Below, piece after piece: positions 998 through 57,113 of a DNA stretch of 64,000 nucleotides; position 1 is the stretch's first letter; each line of letters begins with the position of its first letter. Location of the stretch: assembly GCA_001464585.1 (NCBI GenBank), contig LNFF01000022.1, positions 79,107 through 143,106 on the forward strand. The letters are read 5' to 3'. Under the pieces are notes generated by a model. That model was not told where the DNA came from, made no database searches, and saw only the letters and a list, made by a program, of their open reading frames with translations. Both the position numbers and the translations under genes were made by a program. The DNA comes from Gammaproteobacteria bacterium Ga0077554 (GTDB lineage Bacteria; Pseudomonadota; Gammaproteobacteria; Ga0077554; Ga007554).

Positions 998-1109
998 GTC
1001 ATTGTTTATTGTCATCGCCCTTATCATTTTAGGCGAAGAGAGGGATCTTCCAGGATCCCTCTCTTCGTTCGGGACAAGGATTTCTCGTTTCACTCGAAAT
1101 GACAAACGT
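998..1109. repeat. Family-A dispersed intergenic repeat, copy R1, between modA and modB
   Basis: gtcattgtttattgtcatcgccc ... perfect 13-bp inverted repeat gaagagagggatc/gatccctctcttc ... cgttcgggacaaggatttctcg ... cgaaatgacaaacg. Shares modules gatccctctcttcgttcggga and acaaggatttctcg with R5/R6/R7. Confidence 0.6.
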
Positions 1110-1115
1110 CAGAGA

Positions 1116-1859
1116 TTATTTTACCTTATAACCCGCTTGCTGAATAAGTGTACGCGCCTGCGCAGCCTGCATAAATACTACAAAAGCGTAGGCGGCACTG
1201 TTATTCTCTGCTTTCTTGAGCAGTACCATATCCTGCACGATGGGGTCATAGAGATCTTCTGGCACCAGCCAATAATCTCTGGAAAAAGTATTTTTTGGAT
1301 TAAGAACCTGCGCCAGCGCCAAAAAACCCAGTTGCGCATTCGCCGATGCAACGAACTGAAACACCTGCCCCACATCGTCGCCCTGCACGATACGCGGCTT
1401 TAATATGTGCCACAAACCCATGGTGTTTAATGCCTGATAAGCCGCACGACCATACGGCGCGGTGGCAGGGTTAGCAATGGCAATATGACGAATGCCCGAT
1501 TGTTGAAAAATCTGCGCACCCTCTTGCGATGGCATTGATCGCCCGCTCCATACCACCAGACGCCCCACGGCATAGGTGATGCGCCGCCCCGGCATCACCA
1601 ACCCTTCTTTTTCCAGAAGCGCAGGATGCTTATCATCAGCGGCAAGAAATACATCATACGGCGCGCCGTTATGCAATTGCGCATAAAGCTTACCCGTAGA
1701 ACCGGCGCTGATCAGCAGGTGATGCCCGGTATTTTTCTCAAATACCGGCGCCAGTATATGCAAAGTGTTGAGAAAGTTGGCGGCGACAGCGACTTTTACT
1801 TCGCCTGCATGGAGCAGAGGTGATGCAAACCATAACAGTAATAATACGGGCAGTTTCAT
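1116..1859 (-). CDS. modA: Molybdate ABC transporter periplasmic substrate-binding protein ModA
   Basis: 247 aa, N-terminal signal peptide MKLPVLLLLWFASPLLHA, ModA-like SBP sequence; upstream of modB and modC. Confidence 0.9.
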   Translation of the reverse strand: MKLPVLLLLWFASPLLHAGEVKVAVAANFLNTLHILAPVFEKNTGHHLLISAGSTGKLYAQLHNGAPYDVFLAADDKHPALLEKEGLVMPGRRITYAVGRLVVWSGRSMPSQEGAQIFQQSGIRHIAIANPATAPYGRAAYQALNTMGLWHILKPRIVQGDDVGQVFQFVASANAQLGFLALAQVLNPKNTFSRDYWLVPEDLYDPIVQDMVLLKKAENNSAAYAFVVFMQAAQARTLIQQAGYKVK

Positions 1860-1882
1860 GTGCGCACCCGCTCCTTAAATTC

Positions 1883-2653
1883 CTAAAGCTTACGTAAAAA
1901 ATCCACATTCACATAAGCGCAGCCATGCGCATTACCGGAAATAACGTGTATAGGCTGATGTGGCTCGCCGAGATGATCAAGCACCAGTAACGCGCCCGCG
2001 AAATCATGATCATGGGTATATTCGTTGATAGTCACTACTGTGCGTAAACCGGCATCGCGCGCGGAGCGAAATCCGTTTTCGGAATCTTCAAATGCCAGAC
2101 ATTGCGCAGGTTCCAACCGCATGGCGTGCATGGCGTAGTGATAAATATCCGGTGCGGGCTTTTTGGCGGGCACCACATCGCCCGCTGCAATTACTTCAAA
2201 CCACGTGGCGCTGTCGCTGCCCAGGGTATGATCCAATAATGCAATGACGTTATCCGGCGAGGTGGTGGTGGAAATTGCCAGACGCAACCCTTGGGCGCGC
2301 GCCTCTTCCAGCAAGCGCCGCACGCCGGGACGTAGCGGAATCTTGCCCTGTGACAGCAATTGAGCGTAGTAACGATTTTTTGCCAGGTGCAGGCCGAGAA
2401 TAAATGAATCAAGATTACTCAATGCGGCGGCAGGTAACGAGGGTGCATATTGTTCAATGTAGAAACGAATACGCTCTTTGCCACCCGTAACCCGGAGCAG
2501 CTTGCCATACAGATCAACTGTCCAGTCCCAATCGACCCCGGCTTCAGCAAAGGCTATATTAAATGCGGGGCGATGGCCATCACGCTCCGTGTCGGCCAAG
2601 GTGCCATCAACATCAAAAATCAGTGCGGCAAGATTTGTCATGGTTATTTTCAA
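1883..2653 (-). CDS. cbbY: HAD-family phosphatase, CbbY-like
   Basis: N-terminus ALIFDVDGTLADTERDGHRPAFNIAFAEAGVDWDWTVDLYGKLLRVTGGKERI matches the CbbY / HAD subfamily IA motif (DxDGT). Confidence 0.7.
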   Translation of the reverse strand: MKITMTNLAALIFDVDGTLADTERDGHRPAFNIAFAEAGVDWDWTVDLYGKLLRVTGGKERIRFYIEQYAPSLPAAALSNLDSFILGLHLAKNRYYAQLLSQGKIPLRPGVRRLLEEARAQGLRLAISTTTSPDNVIALLDHTLGSDSATWFEVIAAGDVVPAKKPAPDIYHYAMHAMRLEPAQCLAFEDSENGFRSARDAGLRTVVTINEYTHDHDFAGALLVLDHLGEPHQPIHVISGNAHGCAYVNVDFLRKL

Positions 2654-2680
2654 TCTTAAGTTAAAGGTTAAGGGGCTATA

Positions 2681-2736
2681 TCATTGCGAGCGTAGCGAGG
2701 AATCCTGAAGATCCCTCTCTGCGTTCGGGATGACAG
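2681..2736. repeat. Family-A repeat, copy R2, between cbbY and panC
   Basis: tcattgcgagcgtagcgaggaatcctgaagatccctctctgcgttcgggatgacagc; related to gtcattccgagcaccgcgaggaatcc...gttcgggatgaca in R4/R5. Confidence 0.6.
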
Positions 2737-55639: not shown

Positions 55640-55757
55640 AAATTCCAGTATTTCGAGTTTTTAAATTTATTCCGAAGTGTGTTGTGTTGCTGCGCGCCGT
55701 GCATGGATGCGCAAGTGCCGCGAGAGGCAGGTCGAAAAATGCTCCTGCATTTTCGAC

Positions 55758-55790
55758 ACTTCCGCCATCCATGGCGGTCGGATGGCGGAA
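55758..55790. terminator. Perfect 12-bp stem hairpin in prfB-lysS spacer (possible attenuator/terminator)
   Basis: cttccgccatcc-atggcggtc-ggatggcggaag; shares cttccgccatccatgg with MITE R6; a second imperfect hairpin gtcgaaaatgc..gcatttttcgac lies alongside. Confidence 0.3.
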
Positions 55791-55835
55791 GCGGCCAACG
55801 CTTGGTGGGTTTTCAACCCACCCTACTTTGCTTTT

Positions 55836-56934
55836 TTACAAACCACTCTTCAAACTGGCCTCAATAAATTCATCCAGGTCGCCATCCAGCACCGCGCCGG
55901 TGTTGCCGGTTTCAACGCCGGTGCGTAAATCCTTGATGCGCGATTGATCCAGCACGTAAGAACGAATCTGGCTGCCCCAGCCTATATCCGACTTTCCATC
56001 TTCAAGCACCTGTTGCGTAGCGCGGCGCTTCTGCATTTCCATATCATACAGCTTGGACTGCAATTGCTTCATGGCTGTGGCGCGGTTTTTGTGCTGGGAA
56101 CGGTCGCTTTGGCACGCCACCACGATACCCGACGGAAGGTGCGTAATACGAATCGCCGATTCGGTACGGTTGACGTGTTGCCCACCCGCGCCACTGGCGC
56201 GGTAGGTATCGATCCTGAGATCAGCGGGATTGATGTCGATTTCAATGCTGTCATCAACCTCCGGTGACACGAACACCGAAGCAAACGAGGTATGACGGCG
56301 ATTGCCGGAATCAAACGGTGATTTACGCACCAGGCGATGCACGCCGGTTTCAGTGCGCAGCCAACCGTAGGCATATTCACCTTCGAAACGGATCGTCGCG
56401 CCCTTGATGCCCGCCACTTCGCCGGGCGACATCTCAATCAACTCCGTCACAAAGCCACGCCGCTCACCCCAGCGCAAATACATGCGCATCAACATGCTCG
56501 CCCAATCCTGCGCCTCGGTACCCCCGGAGCCGGACTGAATATCAAGGAAGGCGTTATTTTTATCCATTTCGCCGGAAAACATGCGGCGAAACTCAAGCTC
56601 GGCGAGGCCTTTTTCCAGCACGTCAAGGTCAACCACCACGGCATCAACCGTGGACTGATCATCTTCTTCCCCCGCCATTTCGACCAGGGTTTGTGAATCC
56701 GTCAGCTTATCACCCAGATCCGTCAGCGTATCGACGATTTGATGCAACTGCACACGTTCACGCCCCAGCTCTTGGGCACGGGGCGGGCTATCCCACACCT
56801 TGGGATTTTCCAACTCGCGCTCGACTTCAGTCAGGCGTTCTTTTTTGGATTCATAGTCAAAGATACCCCCTCAGAACGTCGGAACGCTCCTGCATATCTT
56901 TAATGCGTTTTACGATGAGATTGATTTCGAGCAT
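55836..56934 (-). CDS. prfB: Peptide chain release factor 2, with programmed +1 frameshift
   Basis: Frame 0: [25 protein letters not shown] then UGA; +1 frame continues [26 protein letters not shown]...; GGQ and SPF motifs downstream. Track ORF 55836..56813 is only the post-shift part. Confidence 0.9.
56856..56862 (-). promoter_or_regulatory. prfB autoregulatory +1 frameshift site CUU UGA C with upstream AGGGGG SD-like element
   Basis: mRNA ...AGG GGG UAU CUU UGA CUA UGA A...; identical logic to E. coli prfB. Confidence 0.85.
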
Positions 56935-57080
56935 GAAGTTCTTGGCCTGATTGAACAAAGGGTTAATTTTACTACATTTGTCCATTATGCAGCGTTTTTA
57001 TAGAGCTAACAAACAAAAAGGCATAAAACGGGGGTTTTTATGGGTTAGGCGGTAAAGAGGCTAAGATTAACGTCGTGCGT

Positions 57081-57113
57081 GCCATTTCGACCACAGGAAC
57101 GGCGAAATGACAA
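57081..57113. repeat. Family-A mini-hairpin variant R9
   Basis: gccatttcgaccacaggaacggcgaaatgacaac (ccatttcgacc / ggcgaaatgac inverted). Confidence 0.45.

Follow-up and report, generated by a model that had tools for sequence, protein, structure and literature searches.

What are the short repeats that recur between genes through a 64,000-nt stretch of contig LNFF01000022.1 from Gammaproteobacteria bacterium Ga0077554 (the whole stretch is called the window below), and what kind of machinery could have spread them? The original prediction, made from the letters alone, described a dispersed intergenic family at nine loci, R1 to R9, built from five shared modules and recalling both the neisserial repeat dRS3 and miniature inverted-repeat transposable elements (MITEs). 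The repeat is present at all nine loci at the coordinates then given; one family of tagged hairpins accounts for every locus, as single copies, dimers or mosaics. The explanation we favour, and regard as probable if not secure, is that these hairpins are of the repetitive extragenic palindrome (REP) type recognised by a CGTC or TGTC tag, and that they are cut as single-stranded DNA (ssDNA) by an Ssn-type GIY-YIG nuclease encoded elsewhere in the genome.

Reading of the loci together with repeat searches reduced the five modules to one unit of about 25 nt, present on either strand. The modules do share one family but are not distinct from each other: aagatccctc...gttcgggatgaca is simply the gtcatYYcg...gagRRatc unit read from the opposite strand. 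A further module, cttccgccatccatgg, had to be removed, as it belongs to a second repeat family (42260, 55759). A covariance model with 16 seed units, of which the window supplied 10, was run over the window with filters off; it returned 11 full units (E from 5e-10 to 1.5e-6) with a clear gap before the degenerate copies. Ten of the 11 are seeds of the model and match by construction, 33551-33591 being the sole independent one. A fuzzy pattern allowing up to four substitutions gave 14 units, every one inside the nine loci; matches with five substitutions are at shuffle level (mean 3.9 per shuffle at up to five substitutions). The claim of a single dispersed intergenic family is borne out, with 17 of 17 units and half units lying between genes in a window whose non-coding share is 11% (P ~2e-9 for nine loci). 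The units and loci are listed here, with gene identities from Pfam.

Full units, minus strand (covariance model): 1076-1106, 2707-2737, 10972-11002, 33551-33591, 36998-37028, 42174-42204
Full units, plus strand (covariance model): 2677-2707, 33518-33548, 36965-36995, 42143-42173, 49656-49686
Degenerate units: 1052-1075, 1008-1050, 49687-49712, 33639-33656
R1, 998-1106, between modB and modA: three units, a degenerate plus-strand unit at 1008-1050, a minus-strand unit at 1052-1078 without the 'AT' of the tag, and a full minus-strand unit at 1076-1106
R2, 2677-2737, between a HAD hydrolase gene and panC: tags-out heterodimer of a plus-strand unit at 2680-2704 (ATCATTGCG...GGAATC) and a minus-strand unit at 2710-2734 (GTCATCCCGAACGCAGAGAGGGATC), spacer 5 nt
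R3, 10972-11002, minus strand: one full unit in the 63-nt hisH|hisA spacer (43.6 bits, E = 4e-9)
R4, 33487-33694, between a ZIP gene and an LRV-repeat NTPase gene: composite of ~208 nt, with a plus-strand unit at 33521-33545, a minus-strand unit at 33554-33588 (13-nt loop) and a degenerate unit at 33639-33656
R4 accessory hairpin, 33595-33608: CGCAGCTTGCTGCG
R5, 36929-37090, between the LRV-repeat NTPase gene and pgeF: composite of a terminator-like hairpin at 36939-36958, a plus-strand unit at 36968-36992, a minus-strand unit at 37001-37025 and an accessory hairpin at 37032-37045
R6, 42145-42311, between a DUF6901 gene and a response-regulator gene: mosaic of a plus-strand unit at 42146-42170, a minus-strand unit at 42177-42201, a partial minus-strand unit at 42214-42238 with CTTGTCTCGAAC, and the 5' half of a minus-strand unit at 42292-42310
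R7, 49656-49712, plus strand, between acnA and an ABC-F gene: head-to-tail pair, a full plus-strand unit at 49659-49683 followed by CTTGTCTCGAAC...GAGAGATC at 49687-49712
R8, 54068-54082, minus strand: half unit GCGTTCGGGATGACA, adjoining the 3' end of lysS
R9, 57081-57111, between prfB and cheW: 'collapsed dimer' with 5' halves facing (GCCATTTCGACC...CGGCGAAATGACA)

The arrangement of units follows a few rules. R2, R4, R5 and R6 each contain a plus-strand unit followed by a minus-strand unit with the tags outward, and the two stems always differ, making these pairs heterodimers. R1 and R7 contain head-to-tail pairs; in R1 the last two units are joined by GAGAAATC-CTT-GTCCCGAAC, and the general junction "acaaggatttctcg", which is GAGAAATC-CTT-GTCYCGAAC, is present in R1, R6 and R7. 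R3 is a single unit, R8 a half unit and R9 two facing 5' halves. The R4 and R5 composites are direct repeats of each other (83-98% identical). The inverted ends of R6 are two family units in opposite orientation, its outer 19-20 nt being perfect inverted copies (19 nt, or 20 counting the leading T), and its filler at ~42235-42285 derives from the second repeat family. Short-read contigs of the same strain end at units (L002 at 37034 in R5; L002 and L003 at 42163 in R6), as expected of a high-copy repeat. Contigs L001-L003, L120 and L121 are the same strain as the window (L120 and L121 carry its exact modB product) and are of no use for gain or loss.

Each unit reads, 5' to 3', (T)GTC-AT-YYC-GA-NN-NNN-NN-GA-GRR-AT-C. 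An unpaired 5' TGTC tag precedes a 5-bp stem, AT-YYC/GRR-AT, an invariant tandem G·A/A·G, a 2-bp inner stem and, usually, a GNA triloop; an invariant C stands right after the palindrome, which is 21 nt long. The stem thus comprises nine positions, two of them the invariant G·A/A·G mismatches, around a loop of 3 nt. It occurs in three flavours, CCC/GGG (e.g. GTCATCCCGAACGAAGAGAGGGATC), TCC/GGA (e.g. GTCATTCCGAGCACCGCGAGGAATC) and TTC/GAA (e.g. GTCATTTCGACCAGCGGGAGAAATC); by name, GTCATCCCGAACGAAGTGAGGGATC is the C-type and GTCATTTCGACCAGCGGGAGAAATC the T-type. The TGTC tag is found in 10 of the 11 full window units (the unit at 2680 on the plus strand has TATC) and the bounding AT...AT in all 11.

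The same element is spread over distant bacteria. One genome per species was scanned with the pattern GATCCCTC-N5-GTTCGGGATGACA, whose 21 specified bases had to match exactly. It occurs in at least 116 stretches from at least ten phyla, against a chance expectation, by arithmetic, of ~0.3 matches in 596 Gb. Among the matches listed are Acidobacteriota, Chloroflexota, Bacteroidota, Gemmatimonadota, Binatia and Verrucomicrobiota, several proteobacterial classes, Deinococcus, Chlorobi and Ignavibacteriota. Adjacent pairs in other phyla are mostly inverted (29 of 33), with 20 tags-out, 9 tags-in and 4 head-to-tail. Viral contigs gave 10 stretches with the exact pattern, a figure not comparable with that of the genome scan. 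Proteins identical to those of the window were found in activated-carbon and other metagenomes.

A covariance-model search of 100 loci from other phyla allowed an alignment of the best 150 units, from 96 loci. Paired bases fill 98.0% of its cells and compensatory changes are seen in six of the seven pairs. None of 500 shuffles reached any observed covariation measure, and controls with slid partners pair in 5-60%. The model itself shaped this alignment, and some 100 of the units had been preselected with the fixed pattern, which sets their bases. Most of the covariation signal accordingly comes from the ~50 partner units and from the inner stem. The mismatch positions G12, A13, G55 and A56 are kept in 149-150 of the 150 units, the tag GTC in 149-150, its leading T in 146 and the 3' C in 149, and the loop is G-N-A in 120. 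The covariation is strong, and the hairpin is under selection. Dimers fold into one long ssDNA hairpin at ~-12 kcal/mol (z -2.9 to -4.2), for example at R2 (-12.2 kcal/mol, z = -2.9) and R5 (-12.5 kcal/mol, z = -4.2); the collapsed dimer R9 gives -6.3 kcal/mol (z = -2.2) and a weak model score of 8.6 bits. Unusual stability in DNA mini-hairpins is a classic effect of tandem sheared G·A pairs and of GNA triloops, and the apparent presence of both here hints at a structure acting at the level of DNA.

Two published descriptions locate this element. The CGTC-tagged REPs of Di Nocera 2013 (PMC3733652) have a tag that is often TGTC, stems that begin with AT and a short unpaired tail; they are extragenic and form inverted dimers, mostly heterodimers. 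Their families run from CGTC-1, which is dRS3, to CGTC-4, and were reported from five phyla, mostly from Alphaproteobacteria. Their stems have 8-9 fully paired bp and their loops 4-5 nt, repeats with more than one stem mismatch having been discarded; no dedicated transposase is known for them and no RAYT was flanked by CGTC units (PMC3733652). Chenal 2025 (Nat Commun, PMC11893778) found that roughly every second dRS3 copy is a longer, oriented "NTS" element, and that NTS-like Ssn-related motifs (SRM) flank ssnA, a 94-aa GIY-YIG gene, across many phyla. SsnA acts on the hairpin as ssDNA only, both in binding it and in cutting it upstream of the tag, with cutting governed by the three bases 5' of the palindrome and binding by the C just 3' of it; in meningococci the system restricts incoming transforming DNA (PMC11893778).

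On its sequence features we place the window family in the CGTC/TGTC-tagged REP superfamily, which holds the neisserial dRS3/NTS and the SRM. The window units are many short extragenic palindromes with a 5' tag, stems that start A-T/T-A and inverted heterodimers; they do not have 8-9 paired stem bases and a 4-5-nt loop. Because of the mismatch filter, the G·A-mismatched class was probably excluded from the 2013 survey. As in the SRM, the hairpin is oriented, with GTC 5' and C 3' of the palindrome, both in the window and among the 150 units. The flanking of a small single-domain GIY-YIG gene by such motifs is seen in other genomes only. Rfam at gathering thresholds matched nothing in the window other than a tRNA, and thus gave no known RNA family for the units. 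A literature text search for the sequence found no description of the G·A-mismatched class (the figures and supplements of the two key papers lay outside that search). The kind of element is thus known from 2013 and 2025; the G·A-mismatched class falls outside the SRM pattern, and the filter of the REP survey would probably have removed it.

The link to a nuclease comes from these other genomes. Small GIY-YIG genes occur in four of the 116 loci selected for their units (Pfam PF01541, E 3e-16 to 3e-13; tblastn). In L039 (Acidobacteriaceae) the gene lies between an upstream plus-strand unit and a minus-strand unit overlapping its last codons; in L078 (Prolixibacteraceae) units bracket the gene; and in L086 the flanking units are direct copies. 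Flanking units are within ~150 nt in these three; in L083 a unit lies 1.4 kb away from the gene. A unit-encoded motif follows the GIY-YIG domain in all eight Terriglobales homologs read, as LQIPHFVRDD, the translation of the unit, in six and as variants in P0184 and P0200. The homologs listed, at least 120, cover 96-100% of a query that ends in this unit-encoded tail; the search, made with the L039 nuclease, covered near-identical Terriglobales proteins and did not extend to the lineage of the window. In Terriglobales the nuclease gene is placed between carA and a CarboxypepD_reg gene, followed by carB (L141-L148; ~4001-4429 in L141-L144, L147 and L148). For the IS630, TnpB or Rpn transposases proposed as partners there is no support; in other genomes the units accompany the small GIY-YIG nuclease instead, and the window holds no transposase, whether Y1, RAYT or other.

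Syntenic contigs of relatives, at 84-92% nucleotide identity and fetched through homologs of PgeF and DUF6901, were used to follow gain and loss. Two of them, L137 and L140, each with ~20 kb of syntenic DNA, give no unit match at E <= 1. The one dimer of L138 stands at a junction that has no units in the window, and L139 has R7 in common with the window and an intact dimer at the R8 site. The acnA|ABC-F spacer, with its unit pair, is 111 nt in the window and L139, and 15-16 nt without units in L137 and L138. Window and L139 are 97% identical across the R7 spacer (3 differences in 111-123 nt) and ~89% identical in the flanking genes, a difference with a naive binomial P of 5e-4. PgeF and ZIP genes are adjacent and without units in L138 and L140, and a GST-DoxX-MarR cassette lies between them in L137; the window has there, in order, the R5 composite, the LRV-repeat NTPase gene and the R4 composite. 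Set against the PgeF|ZIP spacer of L138, which stands for the ancestral state, R4 consists of ~208 nt of cleanly inserted DNA; R7 is likewise an insertion by these comparisons.

Other copies appear to have been broken. L139 has an intact tags-out dimer at the R8 site, and R8 corresponds to the right end of that dimer; the low-GC island to its left abuts the half unit at the place of the missing part of the dimer, so that the boundary lies inside a unit. The observation that a copy touches this island can be sharpened accordingly, R8 being a dimer truncated by it. At the R6 site a 91% identical relative (L123/L122) has only TGTCATTTCGACCGCTGGTCGAAATGACA, a perfect 29-nt palindrome of two 5' halves, which makes ~130 nt of the R6 interior an indel with its ends inside units. 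We read this palindrome as a dimer that lost its centre; the alternative is expansion in the lineage of the window. On these comparisons unit content and adjacent gene cassettes vary rapidly among genomes that are 84-92% identical. The proposal that the copies serve as recombination substrates is reasonable, as they lie at the borders of indels and of variable cassettes in relatives. As hairpins and cassettes differ among ~85-92% identical genomes, the repeats mark plastic points of the chromosome.

The neighbouring segments can be described in their own right. The product of the gene between R4 and R5 (34197-36797) is a P-loop protein of 866 aa; its seven LRV repeats of 26 aa correspond to 78-nt tandem DNA repeats (34135-34871). 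R4 and R5 do bracket a gene cassette, as first proposed, but its 'NACHT' label lies below the Pfam threshold: NACHT and nSTAND3 match the Walker A region only (E = 0.015 and 0.008), and PADLOC gave no match. The exact protein is absent from a collection of 15 billion proteins. The low-GC island (51700-54067; 2.4 kb, 36-44% GC against ~55%) contains four open reading frames (ORFs) without a Pfam or PADLOC match; it is absent from L137 and L139, in which ABC-F and lysS are 72-115 nt apart. R6 lies inside the block 41358-46318, whose genes are for DUF6901, a response regulator, an RR-HDOD-HD protein and a GAF/PAS histidine kinase. L137, L138 and L139 lack this block and have a nitroreductase gene adjoining acnA; in that spacer L138 has an SRM dimer.

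A mechanism that would connect these observations is as follows. When the DNA becomes single-stranded, during replication, repair or the uptake of foreign DNA, the tagged strand would fold into its hairpin. A small nuclease of Ssn type, made up of one GIY-YIG domain and with its gene elsewhere in the genome, would bind the hairpin and nick a few bases 5' of the tag. Nicking would turn the sites into hot spots of breakage, deletion, insertion and cassette exchange, and nuclease activity or copy-copy recombination could spread the units as inverted dimers, that is, as an SRM-nuclease-SRM element minus its gene. Three steps here go beyond the observations: the presence of the nuclease gene in this genome, the cutting of these hairpins by its product and the origin of new copies. 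We infer them from four lines: a hairpin under selection, conservation of the bases that SsnA reads, GIY-YIG linkage in other genomes, and indel and cassette borders at or inside units.

Several results weigh against this account. No GIY-YIG ORF was found in the 64-kb window by a relaxed motif pattern or by tblastn. The GIY-YIG proteins that neighbour units elsewhere, candidates for the Ssn clade (cd10448), gave nothing in NCBIfam and only weak UPF0213 matches in the PDB (E = 2e-4). The nuclease P0200, present on many contigs and metagenomes of Terriglobales, is always at the same carA|carB locus; it acts as a fixed single-copy gene, RAYT-like, and not as a multicopy insertion sequence (IS), and the idea of an actively transposing multicopy IS in Terriglobales was dropped on that ground. 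The insertions at R4 and R7 carry unique non-repeat DNA and show no target duplication, for which recombination or template switching fits better than clean cut-and-paste. In nearest-neighbour DNA folding single units reach -2.5 to -2.7 kcal/mol (z = -0.2 to -0.6), no better than shuffles; weak computed energies of this kind would be explained by the sheared G·A and GNA stabilisation mentioned above. Finally, the published sequence patterns fail. None of the 11 full window units matches the SRM pattern HGTCWYN(0-2)YYVSBRHN(0-5)WNVSBRGN(0-2)RNCYNB, because the two mismatch A's fall at "not A" positions; one or two substitutions are needed for a fit, and shuffles then give as many matches. The dRS3, NTS and NTSvar patterns (ATTCCC-N8-GGGAAT; CGTCATTCCCGCGMAVGCGGGAATCYRG) are absent from the window even with 4-6 mismatches (up to 6 for NTS). 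The likeness to dRS3 noted at the outset names the right superfamily (PMC3733652, PMC11893778) and not the exact repeat: in architecture and in the critical flanking bases the window class agrees, but the sequence definitions that have been published do not cover it. The only strict SRM matches in the window, at 18326-18358 and 63920-63946 with ~0.17 expected, are not family units and have poor AT-started palindromes; they are probably due to chance.

A more ambitious version of the nuclease account can be offered tentatively, although we doubt that it holds as a whole. In it the G·A TGTC hairpin would be a distinct multi-phylum class that co-evolved with its own GIY-YIG clade, and a nuclease kept as one fixed gene, RAYT-like, would seed dimers, turn them into preferred break and join points and swap hairpin-bounded cassettes between relatives. 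Cassettes exchanged in this way may include the island at R8, the DUF6901-two-component block containing R6 and, flanked by R4 and R5, the LRV-repeat NTPase gene. Such a system would be one of cassette exchange or transposition that works on single strands with a GIY-YIG enzyme.

Could the hairpins instead act as RNA? Transcribed hairpins may serve as terminators, attenuators or mRNA stabilisers within operons, like some E. coli REPs, a role that could coexist with nuclease cutting. As the explanation of the family we consider it unlikely. R1, R3 and R7 do lie within co-directional gene pairs with the tagged strand sense, the R4 and R5 composites have a hairpin followed by a T-run, and Di Nocera 2013 argues that many REPs are transcribed (PMC3733652). 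The sense orientation of all three in the window was tried as a general rule and rejected, there being no significant sense bias in other genomes, where singletons are 19 sense and 13 antisense (P = 0.38) and lie in 14 divergent and 18 convergent spacers. No T-run follows the units and a terminator scan called none of them; its calls are the accessory hairpins only (36939-36958, 37032-37045 and 33595-33608), and terminator-like sites between 33 and 52 kb number 19 against a shuffle mean of 21.8. A GNA triloop with sheared G·A is, moreover, typical of DNA mini-hairpins, and Rfam assigned the units to no family. SsnA, for its part, does not bind RNA (PMC11893778). The suggestion that the copies are terminators or attenuators therefore finds no support for the units and survives at one spot, the hairpin at the edge of R5. 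This hairpin, CCCCGTAGTAAGCTGCGGGG (36939-36958; degenerate at 33493-33512), has T-rich runs on both sides and stands at the outer edge of the R5 (and R4) composite; from its sequence it looks like a bidirectional intrinsic terminator downstream of pgeF.

Nor do inert relics seem a good description, and we rate them as about equally unlikely. The units would then be the decaying remains of an old expansion, with no partner enzyme now, reshuffled by general recombination, replication slippage and palindrome instability. Degenerate, halved or collapsed copies (the plus-strand unit of R1, R8, R9 and the L123 palindrome) are what such decay would leave, no enzyme gene is present in the window, and extinction of a CGTC-specific enzyme has been raised as a possibility (Di Nocera 2013, PMC3733652). 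Against decay, every invariant position is kept in eleven units, the unit complement differs sharply at 84-92% identity with apparent gains included, and the R7 spacer is more conserved than its flanking genes (by the naive test above).

Mobilisation of REP or REPIN elements by a RAYT, a Y1 transposase of IS200/IS605 type, as in Pseudomonas and E. coli, is very improbable here. The inverted doublets do resemble REPINs and BIMEs. A tblastn search with E. coli RayT found one RAYT homolog, 49% identical, in the unit-bearing L071 (Binatia, 5695-6204), and a RAYT-like fragment is present in the close relative L140 (214-371). The homolog in L071 is, however, the sole one among at least 116 unit-bearing loci, with its nearest units 1.2 and 2.1 kb away and none flanking, and L140 carries its fragment yet has zero units. 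The tag is TGTC, not GTAG, a Y1 transposase is missing from the window, and no RAYT flanked by CGTC units was found in the 2013 survey (PMC3733652).

Scarcely credible are classical MITEs, which arise by deletion from a DDE-type IS, carry terminal inverted repeats, lie between target-site duplications and are mobilised in trans: copies are short, intergenic and polymorphic among relatives, and R6 does have the 165 bp and perfect 19-20-nt inverted ends (19 nt as first counted) that earned it the name of a textbook MITE, but those 'terminal repeats' are units of the family like any others, none of R6, R4 and R7 shows a target-site duplication, the R6 site of the 91% relative is a 29-nt palindrome of the same ends and not an empty site, lone single units and half units occur, and an identical 25-mer is found in at least ten phyla, unlike IS-derived MITEs. 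A different element in the window, at 24995-25135 and 29312-29446, does bear a MITE signature, in clear contrast.

The two copies of that element are 85% identical over 99 nt; the first has perfect 19-nt terminal inverted repeats (GAGACCTCTGAGAAACTCG), the second imperfect ones, with CTGGAG on both sides. Both sites are empty in L138 and L140, the second also in L137. The first copy is held within 24855-25160, 306 nt upstream of corA that are absent from L138 and L140 and that include a second inverted-repeat element, TTTAAACG...CGTTTAAA, at ~24886-24989. This suggests that the 306-nt stretch consists of nested insertions. The second, GC-rich repeat family mentioned above (...GTGCCGYGGGAGGCAGGATGCCGGGAGCG... 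and CTTCCGCCATCCATGG) is found at 14771-14821, 15583-15633, 55693-55800 and 42235-42285, and weakly at 7987-8037; one copy is in frame within a Dabb-domain ORF, to which it adds ~20 residues, another is found in the hisG ORF, at its 3' end, a third occupies the lysS|prfB spacer, and a piece makes up the filler of R6. The prfB ORF itself (55836-56813, 325 aa) starts at PCRF profile position 12, which would fit an N-terminal exon split off by the usual +1 programmed frameshift.

If the link between these hairpins and an Ssn-type nuclease is true, published SRM counts underestimate the Ssn system, since soil and water bacteria from many phyla are rich in a class that the pattern overlooks. The GNA triloop together with the invariant tandem G·A would then form a precise and testable recognition element for a new ssDNA-nuclease specificity; enzyme-site pairs of such a kind have been proposed as a tool in the Ssn work (Chenal 2025, PMC11893778). 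The repeats are, besides, break points of short-read assemblies.

The window class can be compared with four known systems. The REPIN-RAYT systems share the inverted doublets foldable as one long hairpin, a copy content that varies by lineage, and the combination of many repeats with a nuclease gene always at one locus (P0200, Terriglobales); they differ in having a GTAG tag and an HUH Y1 transposase as the enzyme, and the units described here have no RAYT association. With the neisserial dRS3/NIME arrays the window has in common a short palindrome of ATTCC...GGAAT type that bounds mosaic arrays with filler (R6, R4/R5) and brackets variable genes. It differs from them in that ATTCCC-N8-GGGAAT is absent, the host is an uncultured gammaproteobacterium, and no filamentous prophage or IS110-type integrase was seen nearby. 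The CGTC REPs of Di Nocera agree in tag, AT stem start, extragenic position, inverted heterodimers and the lack of a flanking RAYT, whereas the window class has stem mismatches and extends also to Acidobacteriota, Chloroflexota, Gemmatimonadota and others. From the SRM/NTS-SsnA system the window class is set apart by its tandem G·A/A·G, its 3-nt GNA loop, its 21-nt palindrome (20 nt in NTS) and the absence of a nuclease gene from the window. It shares with that system an oriented, (C/T)GTC-tagged hairpin whose palindrome starts and ends with AT and is directly followed by C, hundreds of intergenic copies, often clustered round variable genes, a distribution over many phyla, and the SRM-gene-SRM layout with small GIY-YIG genes seen in L039, L078 and L086.

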